Source: Thermoproteota archaeon
GTDB taxonomy: Archaea > Thermoproteota > Thermoprotei_A > Sulfolobales > Ignisphaeraceae
Assembly: GCA_030550585.1 (NCBI GenBank)
Contig: JAUQPB010000003.1
Location: 209,691-273,690 of the forward strand
Length of the DNA stretch: 64,000 bases
Direction: 5' to 3'
Shown: piece by piece, positions 37,648-53,341 of the stretch
Layout of the letters: each line of letters opens with the position of its first letter
Numbering within the stretch: position 1 is the first letter of the stretch
Made by a program: the position numbers and the translations under genes
The notes under the pieces: model-generated
The model's input: only the letters and a program-made list of their open reading frames with translations
What the model was told of the DNA's origin: nothing
Databases searched by the model: none

Positions 37648-39483
37648 TCACATACCTATATAGGCAAAGGTTGTTGCCAAGGCTGCGAGTGATACGGCTG
37701 TGAGTGCTGCTGCGTGTATGAATCCTGCTGCTGTGGTTGATTGCGATGCTTTTCCGGCTATCAATCCCATTATGAATGAGTTCACCATGCTCCCCATGGA
37801 CAGGACTAGTATGAGTGGTGTTGCTGTGGCTATCGGTATTTTGGCTATGGACAGCAACATGTATAGAATTATCATAGGTATAGATGCTAGAAGTATGGCT
37901 CCGAAGTAGGGTAGGAACAGCTGTGATCTCATCCTCCTTCTTGTCTCCTCCTCCAACTCGCCTAGAGTCTGGGTAAACCTAGCCAAAGCGTCTATAACCT
38001 CGGGCGAGCCCCCACCAACAATTGTTGAGTCCACCAAGAACCTCAGAGATGCTATGACAAACCACTCCTTGACTCCTCTAAGCGCCTTTCTAATAGCCTC
38101 CTCAAGACTAAAACCTATGCTGAGTGCCGCTGCCGCTCTCTCCACAACAGGTGTCAAATTCCTGTAGTTCCTAGACGATACAAGCACTATACACTTCTCT
38201 GGGCTTAGACCAGTCTTCCTAATCTCGCTAATATCCCTCAGAAAATCTGCTGTGGATCTAACCAAACCCTTATGCGTCTTAACCACAGACCTATATTTTA
38301 TGGCGGGGGGTATAGACACTGTTAGAAATGCTGCTGCAGTAGCGTAGACAAGAGATTTAACCCCTTGGGGGTCTATCACACCACCCAACACACTGATCCC
38401 GCCGGTGACGATAAGAACCAGTACAAATGCTGCAATCGATATTGGTAGCCATGCCAATAGTGTTAGATACACCTCGTTATACCTGATAGGGGTTCTAGGC
38501 TGGTTCACATGTATAGCCCACATTATAGCAAAGCCCATGAGGGGCAAAACAAAGAAGTTGTAGAGTGCTGGAACAGTAACATCTATATTCATAGATGTTA
38601 ACCCCTCTGGCGTTCTAGCTGCTTGTGCAGCTGATATAGCTGTATTAACTACGAAGAAGATGAACAGCGTTATGGAGACAACTATGCCAAATATGATGTA
38701 TAGCTCTAGAAATGTTGCCAATCTATTGAGAATATTCCTAACCTCGTTCATTCTCGATTCAATTAATTCCCTTGTTCTAATCTCTAGATAGTGTAGAACA
38801 TCTCCACCACTTCTCAAAGTGGTTGTATAGCCAAGCATTATGTCTCTGAATCTCGTGCTCGGATGGTCCGATGCCACCTTCTCCAACGCTGTTATCGGGT
38901 CATCGCCAAACATCTTAATTCTTGTGATAACCATTTGGGCCTCTCTTCTAATAGCTTTGAAAACCCTCAACTGGCTAACCCTCTCAACAACCTTTTCAAG
39001 ACCATAGCCTCCTCTGACCATTGTTGCCACATAAGCCATGAAGAAGGGCAGTTCATTCTCTGTCTCCACTTTTCTCATAGTCATAGCTACATAGGGATGT
39101 GCGAGTCTAACGACAAACACCATTATTGGTATTGTAACGCATATCACAATCCCTATTATCATCTGTACAACGCTTAGTCTAATGGTAAACATAGTAACAA
39201 TGAATCCTATAACAACAAAAACAGCTGATAGAACTAACATTGCCATGGTCTCTGCTCCATACTTTATTGGGTGGATATGCAAACCAGCTCTAGAGAATAG
39301 CCTATCAAACTCAAATGTTTTAGCTAGAGCCCTACCCGGGGACTCGAAGAATGATAAAGAAAAAGCTGTGAAAACATCTCTAACTGTTACCACAGGGCGT
39401 TGAGCAGTTTTTAGAGGTCTTGTAGATGTTGCTGCTTTCTTCTCTTTCTCCTCTTTCTTTCTCTTAAAGAATCCCAATCTCAT
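37648..39483 (-). CDS. Type IV pilus membrane platform protein (TadC/ArlJ-like)
   Basis: Two T2SSF-like repeats (ELPF...SGGD; FLRDISE...GGG); ATG overlaps the ATPase stop (ATGA). Confidence 0.9.
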   Translation of the reverse strand: MRLGFFKRKKEEKEKKAATSTRPLKTAQRPVVTVRDVFTAFSLSFFESPGRALAKTFEFDRLFSRAGLHIHPIKYGAETMAMLVLSAVFVVIGFIVTMFTIRLSVVQMIIGIVICVTIPIMVFVVRLAHPYVAMTMRKVETENELPFFMAYVATMVRGGYGLEKVVERVSQLRVFKAIRREAQMVITRIKMFGDDPITALEKVASDHPSTRFRDIMLGYTTTLRSGGDVLHYLEIRTRELIESRMNEVRNILNRLATFLELYIIFGIVVSITLFIFFVVNTAISAAQAARTPEGLTSMNIDVTVPALYNFFVLPLMGFAIMWAIHVNQPRTPIRYNEVYLTLLAWLPISIAAFVLVLIVTGGISVLGGVIDPQGVKSLVYATAAAFLTVSIPPAIKYRSVVKTHKGLVRSTADFLRDISEIRKTGLSPEKCIVLVSSRNYRNLTPVVERAAAALSIGFSLEEAIRKALRGVKEWFVIASLRFLVDSTIVGGGSPEVIDALARFTQTLGELEEETRRRMRSQLFLPYFGAILLASIPMIILYMLLSIAKIPIATATPLILVLSMGSMVNSFIMGLIAGKASQSTTAAGFIHAAALTAVSLAALATTFAYIGM

Positions 39484-41123
39484 GCCAGTCCAACCTCCTT
39501 TAGAACAGACTTGGGCTCCACATAGTATCTGTAGACATAGGTTGAAACTGATCTGTAATCGCTTAAACCTCTTTTTGCTAGCCACAGCAACACTTGTTTT
39601 CTCCTCTCCACCTCTTCTATTAGTTCGTTCTTTGATATTCCGGTCAACTCTCTTATCTTGTCTATTACAATGCTTTTACTGAGATCTATAGCAAATGTGT
39701 CTTCGGCTGGGTTCCACCTCGCTATCTCTACATAGTTTTCATAGTCTTTCACCTCCCACAAATTCGTTATTCTTCTAGCTGGTCTTGGCCTACCCTTCTC
39801 ATCTCTTATCTGAACCCTTCTTATCACCATGGCTATATTCACTAGCGGTATGTATGAGGGTGGTATATTCATTGGTGGTGAGGTAAGCCTCTTTACAGCA
39901 GCATCTATGTTCTCAGCGTGGAGCGTTGTCATACCGCTGTGTCCAGTTGCAATGGCTTGGAAAAGAACATATGCCTCTTCGCCTCTAACCTCGCCTACAA
40001 CAATGACATCTGGCCTATATCTAAGCGATAGCTTCACCAAGTGGAACAAAGACACCTCTCCAACACCGCTACCAATATATGATGGTCTTGAGACAAGCTG
40101 AACCCAGTTCTCGTGGGGTAGTCTAAGCTCTGGTGTATCCTCTATGGTCACTATCTTGTAGGTGGGTCTGAGGAGCGTTGCTAGGGCATTCAACGTCGAT
40201 GTTTTGCCTGCACCAGTCACACCAAGAATTAGCGTCGTCATTTTGTAGTCCATGGCAAGCCAGAAATAGGCTGCCATGTCAGGGGAGATCGTTTTGAAGT
40301 TTATCATATCAACTATCGTTATAGGCGATTCGCTGAACTTTCTTATAGTGAAGGTCGAGCCTGCTGTCGACACCTCTTTCCTGAATGTAGCCGCAAGTCT
40401 GTGCCCCCCAGGGAGTATAGCATCTAGAATTGGATATGCAACAGATATGTGTTTACCAGCCATATGAGCAAGCTTAAGTATGTATTCGTCGAGTTCCCCC
40501 TCTGATGCAAACTCTATGTTTGTTGGTAGAGACTCGTATTTTCTGTGCCAAACATACACAGGTTTCTTCGGGCCATTACACGATATATCCTCTATGTATC
40601 TATCCCTGAATATAGGGTCTAAAATGCCATAGCCAACAATATCCCTGTCAACATAGTACATGATCTTGCTCCACGAAAGCCCAGGTGTTCTCGTGAACTT
40701 TATTTGAAACTCCTTTATAATCCTCCTAGCTATCCTCCTTATCTCGCTAGCAACATCAACATCCAACTTTGCAATAGGTTTCAACTCCCACACTATGTGA
40801 TCTCTTATCTCCTTGTATATCTTCTCCTCTTCAGGTGTTAGCGAAACCTCCTGCACCTCATATATGAGCTTCCCCTCTGGGTCTTCAACAATGTTTATAT
40901 ATGCATAGGGCTCGTATATAGGATATGTATCGACAACCTTGTAACCGGGTCTAATACTATATAGTGTATGCGAATATCGCGATTCTGATTTAGGTAGCTC
41001 CCTAGTCTCTTCAGCGCTCTCCAAACGCTCCTCCTCTACTTTGCTTTCTTTTTTAGACTTGCCAAAAATTCCGCTGAAGCTCCATAAGCGTTTTGATTCC
41101 CTGTTTCTACTTATTATTATCAC
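39480..41123 (-). CDS. Type IV pilus assembly ATPase (VirB11/ArlI-like)
   Basis: EDISC, GVTGAGKT, IEDTPEL, RPDVIVVGEVRGEE and TGH...TTLHA. Confidence 0.95.
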   Translation of the reverse strand: MIIISRNRESKRLWSFSGIFGKSKKESKVEEERLESAEETRELPKSESRYSHTLYSIRPGYKVVDTYPIYEPYAYINIVEDPEGKLIYEVQEVSLTPEEEKIYKEIRDHIVWELKPIAKLDVDVASEIRRIARRIIKEFQIKFTRTPGLSWSKIMYYVDRDIVGYGILDPIFRDRYIEDISCNGPKKPVYVWHRKYESLPTNIEFASEGELDEYILKLAHMAGKHISVAYPILDAILPGGHRLAATFRKEVSTAGSTFTIRKFSESPITIVDMINFKTISPDMAAYFWLAMDYKMTTLILGVTGAGKTSTLNALATLLRPTYKIVTIEDTPELRLPHENWVQLVSRPSYIGSGVGEVSLFHLVKLSLRYRPDVIVVGEVRGEEAYVLFQAIATGHSGMTTLHAENIDAAVKRLTSPPMNIPPSYIPLVNIAMVIRRVQIRDEKGRPRPARRITNLWEVKDYENYVEIARWNPAEDTFAIDLSKSIVIDKIRELTGISKNELIEEVERRKQVLLWLAKRGLSDYRSVSTYVYRYYVEPKSVLKEVGLA

Positions 41124-41733: not shown

Positions 41734-42963
41734 ATGAAGGCGTTTATCCACCTAGGCTGTAGGTGGATGCCTGAGGGTGCATACTACAAAGCCTTTAAGG
41801 CTGAGGCAGAGGTTGTCGAAGGGAATGCTAGCGACTTGCTGTGGGATTTAACGATATATAGGTATGCTTTGCAAAAGGTTGTAGACGCTCTATGGGATTT
41901 AGATGGGCTTCCGAAGAAGAGTCAGCTACACCAAATGTTCTACCCAGTGCTCAGAGAATATGGCTTTAGAGCGCATGTGGCTAGAAATATCTACAGCTAT
42001 GCACTAGCCTTGGTCAAAGCCGCTAAAAACAGCAATGGCGACAAGCCAAAGATTAAAAGATTGTCTGCTAGACTAGACCACCAGGATGCAAGAGTTGAGC
42101 TAGACAAAGGAGTTGTCAAAGTTGTTTTGAGAAACAAGCAATATACTCTTAGATTAAAGCATAGGAGAGAGTACATCGAGAGGTTTAGGAATTTAAAGTG
42201 GAAAGAGGTTCACGTAAAGTACGAGAATAAGAAAGTCTTTGTTAGCATAGTCTTCGAGGTTAGGTACAATCCATATGTTCCAAAAGGCTTAACAGCAGTT
42301 GATGTGAATCTGAGAACTGTTACAACATTCGACGGCTCTGAAACTAGAAGATATAGAACAAGATTTGTCGAGGCATTGAGCAAGAAGGCTAGAGCTGAAG
42401 AGATACAGAAGAGATATTCTAAGAGGTGGAGATACAATGAGAAGACTCTGAATAGAGTCAGAGCTCTACATAGAAAAGCTAGAAACATCATAACCGATTT
42501 CTGCTGGAAACTAGCAAAGGAGGTTGTAGCTAAAGCGTATAGACAAAAGCATGCTATTGCCTTGGAAGACCTAGAGTACTTGAGGAACTCTATTAATGGC
42601 AAAAGCAGCGGTGTTAGGTGGAGGCTAACACTATTTGCCTATAGAAAGCTTCAACATACTATTATAGCCAAGTCAATTGAGTACAACGTCCCAGTAGTTG
42701 TTGTAGACCCAAGAAACACGTCATCGATTTGCCCAAGATGCGGCTCTAAGCTAATCTACGTGAGCAGGCTAGCAATCTGCAGGAAATGCGAGTTCAAAAG
42801 AGACAGGGATTTTGTTGGAGCAATAAACATCTACTTACGGGGGATGTGGGGAAGCATCGGGTCTTCCCCAAACGGGGGTGGAATGAAGAATGAAACCCGA
42901 CAAACCACCCCAAACAGAAATGAGCCGATGACCACTTATATAAAATCATATACAAGCATATAA
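41734..42963 (+). CDS. tnpB: TnpB RNA-guided endonuclease
   Basis: RuvC-I AVDVN, RuvC-II ALEDL, VDPRNTSSICPRCG...CRKC zinc finger and RuvC-III DRDFVGAINI. Confidence 0.92.
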   Translation: MKAFIHLGCRWMPEGAYYKAFKAEAEVVEGNASDLLWDLTIYRYALQKVVDALWDLDGLPKKSQLHQMFYPVLREYGFRAHVARNIYSYALALVKAAKNSNGDKPKIKRLSARLDHQDARVELDKGVVKVVLRNKQYTLRLKHRREYIERFRNLKWKEVHVKYENKKVFVSIVFEVRYNPYVPKGLTAVDVNLRTVTTFDGSETRRYRTRFVEALSKKARAEEIQKRYSKRWRYNEKTLNRVRALHRKARNIITDFCWKLAKEVVAKAYRQKHAIALEDLEYLRNSINGKSSGVRWRLTLFAYRKLQHTIIAKSIEYNVPVVVVDPRNTSSICPRCGSKLIYVSRLAICRKCEFKRDRDFVGAINIYLRGMWGSIGSSPNGGGMKNETRQTTPNRNEPMTTYIKSYTSI

Positions 42964-46917: not shown

Positions 46918-47331
46918 CTAAGCTGTAGTTGCTACACCTGCTTCTGCGGAACTGCTTGTGGTTGCAATATTCTCAGCGTTTATCGCTGGATTTGAGTCTG
47001 ATCCATCTGCAGTTGCAAAGGTGAATTTCTTATTGGTTAGAAGAATGTCTAGAAGTTTCTTCCCTGTTTCAGAAAGTCTATAGATTTTGTAGTTGCCTCT
47101 AGTATAAACAACCTCGACTATGCTTAGAGCCTCCAAAACATGGAATGCCGCCAAAACCTCGTATCTAGGCAAGCCAGTCACAGCTATCACATCACTTGGC
47201 GATGCGATCCTATCCTTCAATGCGTTTAGTATCGTCAACAGCTTTTCCCGGGGAGTCAAAAACAATTCACCGATATCCTCATTATTTAGCAAAGGGTTAT
47301 TATAAGGAGGCAGACTAATCACAATGTACAT
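46918..47331 (-). CDS. Winged-helix transcriptional regulator
   Basis: SPSDVIAVTGLPRYEV...KIYRLSETGK. Confidence 0.75.
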   Translation of the reverse strand: MYIVISLPPYNNPLLNNEDIGELFLTPREKLLTILNALKDRIASPSDVIAVTGLPRYEVLAAFHVLEALSIVEVVYTRGNYKIYRLSETGKKLLDILLTNKKFTFATADGSDSNPAINAENIATTSSSAEAGVATTA

Positions 47332-47362: not shown

Positions 47363-49645
47363 ATGAAACAGGCTACTATTATAGAGCTTGGCGAGCCCGC
47401 TATAACTAGTTCATGCAAACTCACTTTATACTCTCATAAATGGAGTTTGGTTAGAGTATTCGACCAAAACCTGATCGCGCATCCACATATCATGCTTTAC
47501 TCAGACCTTCTTCTCTTCTCAAATGCACCATTTATACGAAGATACGGCGACAAAGCCAGGGCTTATAGCATTGTGTTAGACAAAAGAGGTGAGAGATTTC
47601 AACTGGATTTGAAGAGCTACACCAGTATCTCGACATATACAGAGGATAGCAGCATCTTATTGCCACTCCGTGGAGACATGGCTAGAGTTCTCCAGTTTCG
47701 AATTGATGGAACGGTGAATGAATATGATGTCGAAAAACCCCATTACATCTTGCCGCAAGGAGATCACAGCTATGTTGTAAAAAGCCGAAATATTCTCGCT
47801 ATCGCTAGAAGCCCTACAACAATAGACGAGATAACACAGTGCAAAAACGTGTTTTACCGCGACTACAACGGTTACAAGATGCTACAATGCGTGTCAAATG
47901 ATGAGAATATTCTTGTTGTTAGCGATGGATTATACGGGTACTCGCTTCAGCATAGAAAACGTGGATTTACCGTAGAAAGCGCTAGCATGGGTTTGAACAC
48001 TGTAGTATTCAGCTCTCAGAGGATGTCACTACTAGTTCACTTCTCTAGAAGAGGAGAAGACGTCTATGAAATCCCATTTAAATTAGATGATACAGTATTT
48101 ATTGATGATAATACTTGTCTTGGTAGAATCAACAATAAGCTTGTTCTTTATAGCCCCAACAACGATTCGCTAAAAATTTTGAAGAATGTTGATAGAGGAA
48201 CTAGTATACACCATGATGCTTTACATGGTTATATAGCTTTGAAAAACGACAATGAAATAGAGCTAATCGACGTAGACAACAATTTGCTGTTATCTATAAA
48301 GATGCCTGCAAAAGATGTTGTGTTGGTAGATTCTAAGCTGATTTTGCTAAATAGGAATAGAATCATTGTATACAGCATAGAGACAAATGATAAAAGGATT
48401 CGCTTAGAGAAGCTTCGCGACGCCCCAACAACTCTCGTACACTGCATTGCAGCTGATTCTCACAACATTTTGTGTATAGATTTGCTGGGCAGGCTCCTTA
48501 AATTAGATGTTAGAAGCCTTGTCAATTCTATTCCAAAAATGCAAGTTCTCCGCAGCGACAAAGGCATTGTAGCGCTGTTGAAGCTTTTTTCGCCTGGCTA
48601 CCCCATAAAGTTTTGGCCTTCAGACAATCTCAACCTCGAATTGAAAAAACTTGATGCATACTCTACAATGGTGTCGATCAAAGACGGTTTAAGGAATAAA
48701 GCCATTCTCACAGTAAGAGCAAATGGAGTTTTAGATTCCTTGGAAAAAACCTTGAAAGCCTTTTGGGAAACACATGAAGTGGAGATAGAGAAGCCCTTGG
48801 TTTTCGATCTTATAACAGCCTTGAATGGAACTCCACTTGCCTGCAACGAGAGCTTGCGCAAAAGTCTCATGAAATGCCTCAACAAAGCACCAGCTCAGGA
48901 AAACCATAAAAACAGTATATTGACGTGTTTTGTTGATGTTACCCAAGCAGAGGATTCTGTGAAGCGCCACCAGATGGTGTTTATCAATAAAGTTAGGTAT
49001 ATTAATATAAACCCTGAGATAAGAGCCGAAACAAATTCTTTGTGTCTAGCCAATGCCCAGATACCTGATTTAAAGGGTGTTGATATTGGCATAGAGGTTC
49101 TATGCGACGACAAGCTCTATACCCTTAACAGCGGCTGTGTAAAGATAGATGGATGCAACTACATCAAAATGCTCGTCTATGCTAAACTTACGAAAGATGG
49201 CTGTGTTGTTGAGGTGCCAATAAGCTATGATGCTGAGATCCATACAAATTTCTATGATGGCTCATCTATTGTGGTAAGGCGTGGACTTGGATACCATATA
49301 CTAATTCCCGTAAGATGCTACAGTATCGAATCGTCGAGGATCGTGTACAAGGATGGTCTAAAGCTAGAGGTTGTAGCTAGAAACAGGTGCAGGGACACTG
49401 CATTGACTATAGCTCTATCCGATAGACGTATAATAATCCCACCAGAAACCGAAATTGCTGTGGAAACCCCTCTTGATATAGACGATATTATCAGGAGCTA
49501 CAAGGAACTTGTAGTTATTGAGCCCTCCGGCCCCAAATTGATTGTGTTTCCCCTAGAACTTGGTTCCCTACTTGGCGTTGCTCACAAAATCACTTTAAAA
49601 GTCTCTGCTTTAACTGGGCTGAGAAGATGGTTAGAAAAACCTTAG
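47363..49645 (+). CDS. Large Cys- and beta-strand-rich protein (possible propeller plus Ig-like domains), unknown function
   Basis: 760-aa ORF of short beta-strand patterns with no signal peptide; overlaps the next gene. Confidence 0.7.
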   Translation: MKQATIIELGEPAITSSCKLTLYSHKWSLVRVFDQNLIAHPHIMLYSDLLLFSNAPFIRRYGDKARAYSIVLDKRGERFQLDLKSYTSISTYTEDSSILLPLRGDMARVLQFRIDGTVNEYDVEKPHYILPQGDHSYVVKSRNILAIARSPTTIDEITQCKNVFYRDYNGYKMLQCVSNDENILVVSDGLYGYSLQHRKRGFTVESASMGLNTVVFSSQRMSLLVHFSRRGEDVYEIPFKLDDTVFIDDNTCLGRINNKLVLYSPNNDSLKILKNVDRGTSIHHDALHGYIALKNDNEIELIDVDNNLLLSIKMPAKDVVLVDSKLILLNRNRIIVYSIETNDKRIRLEKLRDAPTTLVHCIAADSHNILCIDLLGRLLKLDVRSLVNSIPKMQVLRSDKGIVALLKLFSPGYPIKFWPSDNLNLELKKLDAYSTMVSIKDGLRNKAILTVRANGVLDSLEKTLKAFWETHEVEIEKPLVFDLITALNGTPLACNESLRKSLMKCLNKAPAQENHKNSILTCFVDVTQAEDSVKRHQMVFINKVRYININPEIRAETNSLCLANAQIPDLKGVDIGIEVLCDDKLYTLNSGCVKIDGCNYIKMLVYAKLTKDGCVVEVPISYDAEIHTNFYDGSSIVVRRGLGYHILIPVRCYSIESSRIVYKDGLKLEVVARNRCRDTALTIALSDRRIIIPPETEIAVETPLDIDDIIRSYKELVVIEPSGPKLIVFPLELGSLLGVAHKITLKVSALTGLRRWLEKP

Positions 49646-50265
49646 CAAGTTTCTTCAACCGGATAAAACTTTTAGAAAATGCTATCGAAAATCTCTATAC
49701 AATCCCAAGACTATTCTCGAAGAGAATCTATGGAAAGGATTTTAGATGCGAAGAGATTAGAAGAGGTGTTTATAGATGCTATAGCCGTTCAGAAGCGAGG
49801 CTAGTTGCATTGTACAGCCTAGAAGATTCATTTGCTAGAATAGAGGAGATGGAGTACATCGATTTTCTCACCCATCTAAAGAGATATATCAGCACCTTGG
49901 CACCGCCAGGCTGCTCACTAGTATCAATATCTAGTGTGACTCCCTTAAACCCTGATAGCTATTTGTCGAAGATAAATAGCAAACTTCAGATGAAACTTGT
50001 TGAGTTGGAGAGCGACAAAGCAAATACCAGACTTAGAAGCCTGGTTGAGCGGCTCATGGAAATTAGGAAACGTGTTCTAGGCGGGGTGATACCCATAGAG
50101 ACCTCTGTCCTTGCAGCAGTCATATGCCGAGACACCAAAGCACATGAAGATATGCTTGCAAACATGCCTCAAGTGAGCAAGCAGATTTTGGGTATCTCGC
50201 TAAAGAGTGTTAGAGACTTTGAGAAAATAAGTCAGCTAATCAATTTTCGTCAATGGCAAGCATAA
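49627..50265 (+). CDS. Probable N-terminal domain of a VirB4/HerA-like ATPase (see findings)
   Basis: Alpha/beta domain with a coiled-coil insert; ends ...LINFRQWQA over the open +1 frame of the ATPase. Confidence 0.65.
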   Translation: MVRKTLASFFNRIKLLENAIENLYTIPRLFSKRIYGKDFRCEEIRRGVYRCYSRSEARLVALYSLEDSFARIEEMEYIDFLTHLKRYISTLAPPGCSLVSISSVTPLNPDSYLSKINSKLQMKLVELESDKANTRLRSLVERLMEIRKRVLGGVIPIETSVLAAVICRDTKAHEDMLANMPQVSKQILGISLKSVRDFEKISQLINFRQWQA

Positions 50266-50272
50266 AACAAGT

Positions 50273-51355
50273 TTGCTAGACTCATTCGCTTACCTAATGC
50301 CACTCACCTTACCGCCTTCACAAACCATGGGCTCTGAGAACAGCGCTAACGATGTGTATATAGGCGTGGATCTGGTTTTTGGCAGGAGGGTGTCTTGGAA
50401 TGTAGAGACATCTCCATCCCAACACATATTGGTTGTTGGACCAACAGGTTCAGGGAAAAGCATAGCTGTTTCAGTACTGGCATCAAGACTTGGCAGAAGA
50501 TTTGATGCCCCGATAACAATATTCGATATTAAGAATGAGTATGGGGATTACATGAGGCTTTTTCTAGGTAGACCCTTCAATGTGTGGAACGTTATGCATA
50601 CCCCCATACCCCTATGTACCTGTGGTGACGATGAGAACTCCCTCCACTATGACGTGCATTTATTTGTAACCACAGTGAATAGCGTTTTTAAAATGCCCTC
50701 ATATACGAGAGAGCAACTGTATGACACTCTTGTAAGGCTGTGTAAACAATGCGATGAGGTTACATTAGAAGAGGCTGTGCCAAGCCATCTTCTTACAGAT
50801 GAATATGAGTCTCTCAGCACATTATTTAGCGTTTTCAAGGTCTATGAATCGCCGTATAATGCGCTAAACATGCTGTTGGAAAGAGACTCTGTCATAGACC
50901 TTCATAAGCTGTTTCTTCTAGATAAAAGAGTCTCTGCAATAACAATACTCTACATAGTGAAGCAGATATTGAAAAAATCTAGGGTATTTTTCGAAAGCAG
51001 AATCAGTAGGATAGTGGTTCTAGACGAGCTGTGGCATCTAACTCACTATGCTGTTGACGAATTTATGAACGTTCTTGTAAGGTATAGCCGAGGCTTTGGA
51101 ATCTCTCTTGCAATGGCAACTCAAAACATCGATGATTTGAAACCGTATACAGATTCCATAGTGGAGAACTGTGGAATGCTACTAGCACTTTCATCGGCTT
51201 CGCAAAGCTATTGGCTAAAACTGGCAAGGTATCTCAACCTCAGCAGAAAAGGCATAGAAAACGCTATGAGGTTTTCTAGCCAAGGCACAGGCGTGTTGAG
51301 GATATACCCACATGAAAAACCTTTTCACGTTTATCTAGATCCTTTTGATGAGTGA
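50273..51355 (+). CDS. VirB4/HerA/FtsK-superfamily ATPase domain (DUF87-like)
   Basis: VYIGVD, HILVVGPTGSGKS, FDIKNEY, VVLDELW and RYSRGFGISLAMATQN. Confidence 0.88.
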   Translation: MLDSFAYLMPLTLPPSQTMGSENSANDVYIGVDLVFGRRVSWNVETSPSQHILVVGPTGSGKSIAVSVLASRLGRRFDAPITIFDIKNEYGDYMRLFLGRPFNVWNVMHTPIPLCTCGDDENSLHYDVHLFVTTVNSVFKMPSYTREQLYDTLVRLCKQCDEVTLEEAVPSHLLTDEYESLSTLFSVFKVYESPYNALNMLLERDSVIDLHKLFLLDKRVSAITILYIVKQILKKSRVFFESRISRIVVLDELWHLTHYAVDEFMNVLVRYSRGFGISLAMATQNIDDLKPYTDSIVENCGMLLALSSASQSYWLKLARYLNLSRKGIENAMRFSSQGTGVLRIYPHEKPFHVYLDPFDE

Positions 51356-51359
51356 ACCT

Positions 51360-52031
51360 CTATTTCTCTATCCCAAGCTCTTCATAGACCTCCTTAGGTG
51401 CTATAAGCCTTGCGCCACGGCTTGCCTCATGCCTCTTCTTAAGCTCTCTTTCCTTCTGCTTCTTCTTCCACTTGTACTTGTGTGTTCCTCTAAGACCTCT
51501 AACAGCTAGCAACCCTCTAGCCTTCCTACCAGCAGAGGTCTTGCCTCTGAAGACCCTGCCACGCTGGCTTGGATTCGCTATCCAGTTTATGTCGGGATCG
51601 CTTAGTATTGCTGGGTGGTGTGGATCTACAAGAATCACCTCATAGTATTTGTATAAACCGTCTTCGCCAACATAGTAGCTGTTGAGAACCTCTAGATTTC
51701 TATACTTTCTAGCTGCCCTCTCCTCTGCTATAAGCTGCAGGCTCTTCCTAGGCGAATGGCCATATACACCCATTCTCTTTGGTCTCCTACCAGAGTTTGG
51801 CCGCGGCTTTCTCAGACCACCTTTTCTAACTCTAACCCTAACTACGACGAATCCCGGCTTAGCTTTGTATCCAAGCCTTCTAGCCCTGTCTATTCTAGTG
51901 GGCTTCTCGACTCTTACTATCGATGGCTGTCTCCTCCACTCGACTAACCTCATCTTCATTAGTTGCCCATGCTCGCCCTCGTATGGTTTTTTCCATGCAA
52001 GAGCCATGTAATGATACATCGATTGCGCCAC
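51360..52031 (-). CDS. rpl15e: 50S ribosomal protein L15e
   Basis: [29 protein letters not shown] and [11 protein letters not shown]. Confidence 0.96.
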
Positions 52032-52120
52032 TAAAGCCACCTTTTTCTCTACAGCTTTTACACTGTCTATCGATAACTAGTTTTAAGCAGTAATGAAAAT
52101 TAGTGCCATGGGAAGGTTTT

Positions 52121-53341
52121 ATGCCCATACCAAAAATCTATATAGGGTTACTGGGAAAGACAAATGTCGGCAAATCAACGTTCTTCTCCGCAGCCACACT
52201 TGTCCCCACAAAAATTGAGAACAGACCTTTTGTGACCTTAGAGCCCAATACAGCAATTGCATATGTTAGAAGAACTTGTGTCCACAAAGAGCTTGGTCTC
52301 CCAAAATGCAACCCAGTATCTTCTCTGTGCATCAATGGCGAGAGGTTTATCCCTATAATTCTAGTTGACTTGCCTGGCCTAGTTAAAGACGCTCACAAGG
52401 GCAGAGGGCTTGGAAACAAGTTCCTCGACGCAATTAGACAGGCAGACGCCCTTATACACGTTGTTGATGTGTCCGGCTCTACAGATGAGGATGGAAGGCC
52501 TGTGAAGCCTGGGTATAGAGATCCCATAGAGGATGTCATGGAAATTGAGAGGGAATATGATGAGTGGATGTATGGAATAATATCCAAGGACTGGCCGCGA
52601 CTGGCAAGAGCCTTGGACACCATGGGCCAGAGCCAAGTGATTGACACATTGGCTCAGAGACTCTCTGGACTATCTATAACAAGAGCTCATGTGGCTAAAG
52701 CCCTTGCTGTCACGGGGCTGGAAAACTCTAAGCCATCTTCTTGGAGAGAAGAAGAGCTTAGAATGTTTATGAAAGCTCTTAGAGAGGTTGCCAAGCCCAT
52801 TGTTATCGCTGCAAACAAAATTGATGTCCCAGAGGCTAGAGACCTCTACAAAAGCCTTGTCAAGAGATTGCCGAACAGGATAATAGTGCCTGTTACAGCA
52901 CTTGGAGAGCTAATGCTTAGAAGATTTGCTGAAAAAGGCTATGTTGAGTACCTTCCGGGAGACCCAGACTTTGTGATAAAGGATAGGACTGCCTTCACAC
53001 AACAGCAGCTGAAGGGCTTAGAGCTTTTGAGGGAGATAATGAGAGAGTTTGGCGGTACTGGGGTTCAGAAAGCATTGAATAGCGTGGTTTTCGATGGTCT
53101 CAACAAAATTGTTGTCTATCCCGTTGAGGACGAGGATAGGTATACTGATAGCAAGGGAAATGTTCTTCCAGATGCATACCTAGTTACCAAGGGCTCTAAA
53201 GCCATAGACCTTGCGTACCTGGTTCACACAGATCTTGGCAAAAGATTTCTCTACGCAATAAACGCCAAAACCAAGCAGAGAATAGGTAAAGATTATGAGC
53301 TTAAAGACGGGGATGTGATAAAAATTGTTGCAACTGTGTAG
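52121..53341 (+). CDS. ychF: YchF/OLA1-like Obg-family NTPase with TGS domain
   Basis: GKTNVGKST, PFVT, DLPGLV, GRGLGNKFL, NKID and C-terminal TGS. Confidence 0.9.
   Translation: MPIPKIYIGLLGKTNVGKSTFFSAATLVPTKIENRPFVTLEPNTAIAYVRRTCVHKELGLPKCNPVSSLCINGERFIPIILVDLPGLVKDAHKGRGLGNKFLDAIRQADALIHVVDVSGSTDEDGRPVKPGYRDPIEDVMEIEREYDEWMYGIISKDWPRLARALDTMGQSQVIDTLAQRLSGLSITRAHVAKALAVTGLENSKPSSWREEELRMFMKALREVAKPIVIAANKIDVPEARDLYKSLVKRLPNRIIVPVTALGELMLRRFAEKGYVEYLPGDPDFVIKDRTAFTQQQLKGLELLREIMREFGGTGVQKALNSVVFDGLNKIVVYPVEDEDRYTDSKGNVLPDAYLVTKGSKAIDLAYLVHTDLGKRFLYAINAKTKQRIGKDYELKDGDVIKIVATV

Follow-up and report, generated by a model that had tools for sequence, protein, structure and literature searches.

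The window analysed here is a stretch of 64,000 nucleotides (nt) from a Thermoproteota archaeon of the Ignisphaeraceae (assembly GCA_030550585.1, contig JAUQPB010000003.1, positions 209,691 to 273,690, forward strand). It contains two overlapping open reading frames (ORFs) that together carry the two halves of a VirB4/HerA-like ATPase. The first, ORF1, ends with ...ATC AAT TTT CGT CAA TGG CAA GCA TAA, as read from the sequence, and its last five residues (RQWQA) are a tail without conservation. The second lies in the +1 frame, which is open from 50240 to a TGA at 51353-51355 (ATPase ORF 50240-51355). Counted from the first letter of the window, the features are:

49627-50265, + strand: ORF1 in frame 0, 212 amino acids (aa), VirB4-like N-terminal domain (N-domain) of a CedB-like protein
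50237-50239, + strand: TAA in the +1 frame, 5' limit of the shift window
50242-50251, + strand: proposed shift site AAT TTT CGT C, with AAT in the E site, TTT in the P site and CGT in the A site
50249-51355, + strand: linker followed by an ATPase domain of the HerA/VirB4 type in the +1 frame, 368 aa counted from the shift
50263-50265, + strand: frame-0 TAA stop of ORF1, 3' limit of the shift window
50438-50461, + strand: Walker A motif GPTGSGKS of the ATPase, from the translation

Both frames are jointly open at 50240-50262 (23 nt). The junction is confined to this interval by the +1-frame TAA on its 5' side and the frame-0 TAA on its 3' side. It holds TTT at 50245-50247, in frame with ORF1 from 49627, then CGT at 50248-50250 and C at 50251. 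The first canonical start codons of the +1 frame follow at 50273 (TTG) and 50297 (ATG). A conceptual +1 shift yields 207 + 368 = 575 aa with the junction ...ISQLINF|VNGK.... This ORF pair, with its overlap, its TTT CGT C site and its 575-aa fusion, had been described in an earlier, sequence-only reading and was found as described when sequence and ORF list were read again.

The two ORFs are proposed to be one cedB-like gene decoded by programmed +1 ribosomal frameshifting at UUU-CGN. From the comparative evidence, the probability of this interpretation is estimated at about 0.8. It had been put forward by the sequence-only reading, together with indels, variable splits in orthologs and independent starts as findings that would speak against it; the tests on all three came out in its favour.

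The downstream ORF encodes an ATPase of the P-loop type, with matches to the Pfam families DUF87/HerA central domain (E 3e-10), AAA_10 (E 1e-09) and TraG P-loop (E 8.7e-07). The best NCBIfam family for both halves was CedB (NF041017). The C-terminal half matched model positions 224-587 (E 3.5e-40, 138.2 bits) and the N-terminal half positions 122-221 (E 0.04, 12.5 bits). These model positions adjoin, and the two halves therefore represent one protein. Unsplit relatives of 587-600 aa each gave a single continuous match to the model (E 1e-84 to 1e-96, 282-324.5 bits). The curated CedB cut-off is 700 bits. Both halves and the unsplit relatives score far below it and thus belong to a distant CedB-like clade, not to CedB proper. 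The VirB4/HerA-like ATPase in two halves of the sequence-only reading can hence be refined to a CedB-like protein, CedB being the ATPase of Ced DNA import. The gene putatively encodes a VirB4/HerA-type DNA-translocation ATPase of the archaeal Ced import system.

The conceptual +1 product aligned through the junction with 23 unsplit orthologs. Conserved GPxGxGK (Walker A) and DE..W columns were invariant in both alignments (A1 and A2). An AlphaFold2 model of one unsplit ortholog, L029, reached a predicted local distance difference test score (pLDDT) of 78.9 with a 23-row alignment. In this model, the residues F-F-R 195-197 close the last helix of the N-domain (185-195) and are followed by a low-confidence linker (197-234) and the ATPase. 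The position of the homologous F-F-R at the end of the N-domain suggests that the default product of the split gene is a whole domain. The first residues of the ATPase ORF had been likened to an internal linker, and the model agrees: the junction lies at the end of the N-domain, ahead of a flexible linker. The best solved structures found by Foldseek were TrwK/VirB4 of R388 (E 1e-18) and the C-terminal domain of Thermoanaerobacter VirB4 (template modelling score 0.72 by target length). CedB of Sulfolobales (NF041017) and bacterial VirB4/TrwK have the same order of a VirB4-like N-domain and a HerA/VirB4 P-loop ATPase. True CedB (family f13) is encoded by one ORF without TTT TTT CGN, in contrast to the two ORFs with the motif here. 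The genome also carries an intact CedD-like paralog in an open frame of 549 aa. At NCBI, proteins almost identical to the N half bear the name 'hypothetical protein [Ignisphaera sp.]'.

Conservation and selection at the junction

Orthologs were searched with the N half in 41 related genomes and with the CedB model in 251 genomes of the order. The N half had a match in 30 of the 41. In family f1, to which this genome belongs, each of the other 24 genomes had an N-half open frame of approximately 190-250 aa; three genomes of other families had the match in a frame of 587-602 aa, the fused form. A protein search for longer, fused close relatives carrying the N half found none, which is weak evidence. 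Among the matches listed for the CedB model, the best ones of f1 (26 rows) and of a second family, f6 (13 rows), were frames of 363-405 aa that started at model position 210 at least. Single frames of approximately 540-630 aa were present in the families f3, f4, f7, f10, f12 and f13. Family f13 alone exceeded the CedB cut-off (35 of the 251 genomes), and the genome of Sulfolobus acidocaldarius gave the expected match as control for the model.

The junctions of 38 split loci were cut out, 25 from f1 and 13 from f6, covering nine genera; two loci were incomplete at contig ends. In all 38, the ATPase half lies in frame +1 with respect to the N-domain. The overlap open in both frames varies between 8 and 89 nt, and every overlap includes an in-frame TTT with CGN (32 loci), TGA (3) or TGT (3) as the next codon. 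TTC does not occur at the site. The consensus is AAT TTT CGN in f1 and TTT TTT CGN in f6. After the slip, the next codon begins with G in every locus (Val, Ala, Glu, Asp or Gly). Split and motif persist down to approximately 25% protein identity among orthologs. Three Ignisphaera loci (L008-L010) have the site AAT TTT TGA and an overlap of just 8 nt, TCAATTTT, directly before the TGA; the shift is therefore possible nowhere else in these loci. The arrangement is more than chance, as it recurs in all split orthologs, and the orthologs are split at a constant frame and motif, where variable positions or frames had been named as contrary evidence. In three f6 loci (L032, L034 and L035), the N-domain frame is open for approximately 206 codons, and the first ATG, GTG or TTG leaves 102-112 residues before the site.

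The genome has 1.76 Mb and 41.3% G+C. Codon usage was taken from a crude set of 1517 ORFs. Per 1000 codons, CGT occurs 1.77 times, CGC 1.34, CGA 1.37 and CGG 0.79 times, compared with 32.0 for AGA and 19.4 for AGG; CGN codons are 9.3% of all Arg codons. CGU is thus a rare Arg codon in this DNA, as presumed earlier. The genome encodes a single tRNA-Phe, with anticodon GAA and an intron, and one tRNA-Arg gene each for CCT, TCT, CCG, TCG and GCG. Within the split genes, TTT and TTC are used at approximately 1:1, and CGN accounts for 0-30% of Arg codons in most of them; six f6 genes have 0-1 CGN among about 40 Arg codons. With one representative per genus, and genera taken as independent, all nine genera would share TTT-CGN for this Phe-Arg by chance with a probability of approximately 10^-10.3. 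Codons neighbouring the site vary freely at synonymous positions. The conservation of site and frame thus exceeds what the protein sequence demands.

Selection was examined in 12 close pairs, some loci being used twice, over 14 codons on each side of TTT. Before TTT, synonymous and non-synonymous differences numbered 44/36 in frame 0 and 15/66 in frame +1. After TTT, they were 6/86 in frame 0 and 48/48 in frame +1. Purifying selection switches from frame 0 to frame +1 exactly at TTT, and the frame-0 tail beyond it is not under selection. The position of ATG, GTG or TTG in the +1 frame is not conserved among the split loci. Four loci (L016, L021, L022 and L039) have none within 60 codons after the site; their first start is at residues 80-99 of the C-terminal part, past Walker A at 63-74. 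In seven more loci, the first canonical start follows at +23 to +45 codons. An independent initiation of the ATPase at 50273 or 50297, considered in the sequence-only reading, is not supported as a general rule: the starts vary, and four genomes have none before Walker A. The codons after TTT are selected in the +1 frame, and these residues are therefore translated in that frame, although a start is impossible there in most loci. This selection directly after the site is the strongest argument for ribosomes arriving from ORF1.

The assembly was checked over 49900-50600 with four public metagenome runs, none of them the probable source. Contigs of X2 (depth 206) and X3 (depth 181) span this interval, and an X4 contig spans the junction. 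The contigs differ by 7-15 substitutions and have no inserted or missing letters. An indel or sequencing error, suspected earlier as a simple cause, is contradicted by these contigs crossing the junction. Sequencing error was rejected on the grounds of these independent contigs and of an arrangement common to 38 genomes.

The motif is also present in unsplit genes. In an alignment of 36 conceptual products and 23 unsplit proteins, unsplit f3 and f4 proteins have F-F-R at the homologous position, encoded by TTT TTT CGN in 14 of 14 and mostly with CGA (L028-L030, L042-L050, L053 and L055). Altogether, 14 of the 16 unsplit orthologs of the clade have kept TTT TTT CGN and two have lost it. These unsplit genes use TTT and TTC at approximately 1:1, and CGN for approximately 12-38% of Arg. 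Only two further in-frame TTT-CGN occur in the 14 genes. TTT TTT CGN at the site thus runs counter to the codon usage of the unsplit genes themselves, and its joint chance over eight genera is approximately 10^-11.6. The motif is absent from the seven unsplit proteins that are more distant, among them true CedB.

A quick tree placed the f1 split genes (support 99), the f6 split genes with L026 (support 96) and the unsplit f3/f4 genes (support 89) in one clade (support 94) with a three-way fork. The support for a single split clade was 30, so that one and two origins of the split are not distinguishable. The motif is in split and unsplit genes; therefore, the slippery site seems older than the split. 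The gene L026 belongs to a genome of f1 (G019, genus g4), is split and has the f6-type site TTT TTT CGA. Its grouping with the f6 genes could be due to a transfer between the families or to a misplaced long branch.

Competing explanations

Several observations weigh against a programmed frameshift. Many loci, including this gene with TTG at +9 and ATG at +17 codons, have a canonical start 1-17 codons after the site, so that a separate initiation is possible there. The presence of the motif in unsplit orthologs means that its conservation alone is no proof of a role in frameshifting. In the ORF set of this genome, in-frame TTT-CGN occurs 58 times, with no depletion when compared with TTC/AGR combinations (odds ratio 0.91, p 0.71). 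Without genome-wide avoidance, the heptamer alone is either not very shift-prone or not selected against. The A-site codon TGT of three loci is not rare (5.2 per 1000 in this genome). No conserved RNA structure was detected within 70 nt on each side of the site in the 38 loci (mean z -0.53 downstream and -0.54 upstream, from crude mononucleotide shuffles), and no Shine-Dalgarno-like stimulator near the site was evident by eye. Stimulatory elements of these two kinds accompany some programmed +1 frameshifts and are dispensable in others.

These observations leave room for a genuinely split gene, whose ATPase would be a second polypeptide made from an internal start or by termination-reinitiation, with TTT-CGN inherited from an unsplit ancestor. 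The two start codons shortly behind the site in this gene and a canonical start within 17 codons downstream in 23 of the 38 loci agree with such a gene, as do the motif in the unsplit orthologs and a break at a domain boundary, where a two-chain protein is plausible. Against it stand the variable start positions, with four genomes lacking a start before Walker A and seven more reaching their first start no earlier than +23 to +45. Purifying selection in the +1 frame begins with the first codon after TTT (48/48 versus 6/86). In all 38 loci, no stop interrupts the +1 frame downstream of the motif, though the 5' limit of this frame shifts between 2 and 28 codons upstream. The motif was lost in 2 of the 16 unsplit genes of the clade and in none of the 38 split genes. 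Two separate polypeptides are therefore judged improbable.

A correction at the RNA level is very improbable. RNA polymerase would slip on the T run of the site and drop one U or add two. A run is present, with T4-T5 in f1 and T6 in f6 and in the unsplit relatives, and all comparative observations, that is, frame relation, motif and absent starts, would fit equally well. Transcriptional slippage is generally productive on runs of at least about 7-9 A or T, whereas most Ignisphaera loci have TTTT only. Slippage of the polymerase also leaves unexplained the strict C or T-G after the run and the rare Arg codon or stop codon in frame 0.

A frameshift mutation or sequencing error in a decaying cedB pseudogene can practically be dismissed: a single-base frame break is the commonest artefact, and a second gene of this genome, described below, has a strain-specific extra T in a T run, but the break here is the same in 38 genomes of nine genera, purifying selection acts on both halves, which are intact, Walker A is invariant along with other ATPase residues, and independent assemblies (depth 181-206) have no indel.

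Neighbouring genes and a contrasting frame break

One further gene is linked to ORF1:

47363-49645, + strand: upstream gene of 760 aa, its 3' end overlapping the start of ORF1 by 19 nt

Given this overlap, the upstream gene is probably in the same operon as ORF1. It had no Pfam or NCBIfam family match above noise. According to tblastn, the 760-aa gene also immediately precedes the split gene at 18 further loci of this family (L002-L018 and L020). Directly downstream of the ATPase are a basic ORF of 226 aa (51360-52040, - strand) and a GTPase-like ORF of 412 aa (52103-53341, + strand), both housekeeping-like by eye from their translations. Judged by eye from these neighbours, the cedB-like operon would have core genes around it rather than being part of an obvious mobile element.

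Beside the operon, a divergent gene of 137 aa (46918-47331, - strand) matched NCBIfam NF053658, 'SSO5209 family protein', with E 9.8e-22, below the cut-off; SSO5209 had no mention in the literature searched. A TnpB-family RNA-guided endonuclease gene (41734-42963, + strand; NF040570, E 1.7e-34, over the cut-off) represents an IS200/IS605-type element approximately 5 kb upstream. Further upstream, a FlaI/bindosome BasE-like secretion ATPase is encoded at 39480-41123 on the - strand (NF058587, E 3e-112; NF053672, E 1.3e-87; both below their cut-offs).

Other pairs of a frame-0 and a +1 ORF joined at TTT-CG or TTT-TG were sought in this genome; 14 candidates were obtained and three were inspected. 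One of these genes, outside the window at G000:C4:231541-232558 (loci L063 and L065), is broken at AAT TTT TTT CGA (232240) into 241 + 137 aa. It had no Pfam family match. Its nine relatives have a single frame of 331-368 aa, and the closest one (90% identity) has T6 versus T7 here. The motif is the same, and a +1 slip there would rejoin the two parts of this second protein. As a conserved frameshift it was rejected, in favour of a strain-specific extra T or a homopolymer error.

Proposed decoding mechanism, known frameshifts and meaning

In the proposed mechanism, ribosomes on ORF1 would reach AAT TTT CGT with the tRNA-Phe (GAA) bound to the P-site UUU by G:U wobble. The A site would meanwhile hold the rare, slowly decoded Arg codon CGU, or another CGN, UGA or UGU in relatives. 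Most ribosomes would decode CGU and stop five codons later, yielding the N-domain protein of 212 aa. A fraction would slip by +1, the tRNA-Phe re-pairing with UUC (50246-50248) by Watson-Crick pairs and GUC (50249-50251) being read next. The slipped product of 575 aa (...ISQLINF-VNGKHK...) would combine N-domain, linker and ATPase. P-site re-pairing is feasible from UUU to UUC, or to UUU in the TTT-T variants. As UUU is bound by wobble and UUC by Watson-Crick pairs, a forward slip would be favoured while the A site awaits a scarce tRNA-Arg or a release factor. It is presumably the ribosome and not RNA polymerase that makes the shift. Slippage in the P site is suggested by analogy with PA-X, prfB and Ty1. 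The full-length motor is likely the minor product, and the ratio of the products may have a regulatory role.

The closest known site is that of PA-X in influenza A virus, UCC UUU CGU C. There, tRNA-Phe on the P-site UUU re-pairs to UUC while the rare CGU is in the A site. The shift works without strong RNA structure and yields a minor accessory product. The core site is the same, but PA-X is a viral gene in eukaryotic cells and the cedB-like gene is chromosomal and archaeal. Unlike in PA-X, the shifted product here would be the sole way to join the motor domain to the N-domain, and the A-site codon varies among relatives (CGN, UGA, UGU).

The +1 shift of bacterial prfB, encoding RF2, occurs at CUU UGA C by a P-site slip onto an overlapping cognate codon at a slow A-site signal. 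In this deeply conserved cellular gene, a Shine-Dalgarno-like sequence upstream stimulates the shift, and RF2 in turn regulates its own synthesis. The loci L008-L010 resemble it with their stop-codon version, AAT TTT TGA. Unlike in prfB, no Shine-Dalgarno-like element or structure was found at the cedB-like site and no feedback logic is evident.

A set ratio of a full-length and a shorter N-terminal protein is known from the tau and gamma products of Escherichia coli dnaX, with the frameshift at a domain boundary. In dnaX, a -1 shift makes the short form. In contrast, the short form would be the default of the cedB-like gene, and a +1 shift would make the long form.

For Archaea, the sole experimentally shown programmed frameshift is fucA1, the alpha-L-fucosidase gene of Saccharolobus solfataricus, according to a 2021 review of archaeal recoding (PMC8211752). 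It is a -1 shift on A-AAA-AAT, confined to two strains, with full-length relatives (PMC8211752). Like the gene described here, fucA1 is a crenarchaeal chromosomal gene of two overlapping ORFs whose fusion resembles single-ORF homologs, and it has rare codons beside the slippery site. Unlike this -1 shift of two strains, the cedB-like arrangement is +1 and kept across two families. The same review (PMC8211752) presents an archaeal +1 event as merely suggested, for a haloarchaeal myovirus, and a frameshift of the Mg chelatase in Archaea as presumed.

No published report of a frameshifted or split cedB was found in the main texts searched on CedB, Ced and Ignisphaera. The words 'frameshift' and 'split' are absent from the main text of PMC9905601, and 'VirB4' and 'HerA' from that of PMC3711429, whose supplementary cluster tables could list such a gene. 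A look-up of terms in PMC11868833 gave no mention of such a gene either.

If correct, the cedB-like gene would be the first chromosomal case of a deeply conserved +1 frameshift in Archaea; a cellular archaeal +1 case had not previously been shown, as far as PMC8211752 indicates. The natural variants differ in the A-site codon (CGN, UGA or UGU) and in the E-site codon (AAU or UUU) and form a ready-made mutational series. They offer a simple test bed for frame keeping at hungry codons by archaeal ribosomes, which resemble eukaryotic ones. The arrangement also concerns annotation: cedB-like genes of these lineages are currently called as a 'hypothetical protein' and a separate ATPase, and surveys of Ced DNA exchange can miscount them.

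A tentative and rather doubtful extension is that the slippery site predates the split and is active in split and unsplit genes alike. The unsplit genes may also shift at the site and release the N-domain with a tail of 7-16 residues. F-F-R followed by a linker in the L029 model implies that both gene forms could yield a complete N-domain. A small indel just past the site in Ignisphaera and in the second family would then have flipped the default, making the N-domain the standard product and the motor dependent on a slip. Either this is the case, or the older site had a different role, for example in pausing between the two domains, and made a later indel tolerable.

For the exchange of DNA among hyperthermophiles, the proposed frameshift suggests that the amount of motor relative to the membrane-proximal N-domain is set during translation. 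If the site indeed works in both gene forms, it would be an ancient switch that fixes how much N-domain is made relative to full motor for a DNA-import machine of archaea. With the Arg codon CGN as the hungry codon, this ratio could respond to the supply of charged tRNA-Arg or to stress.

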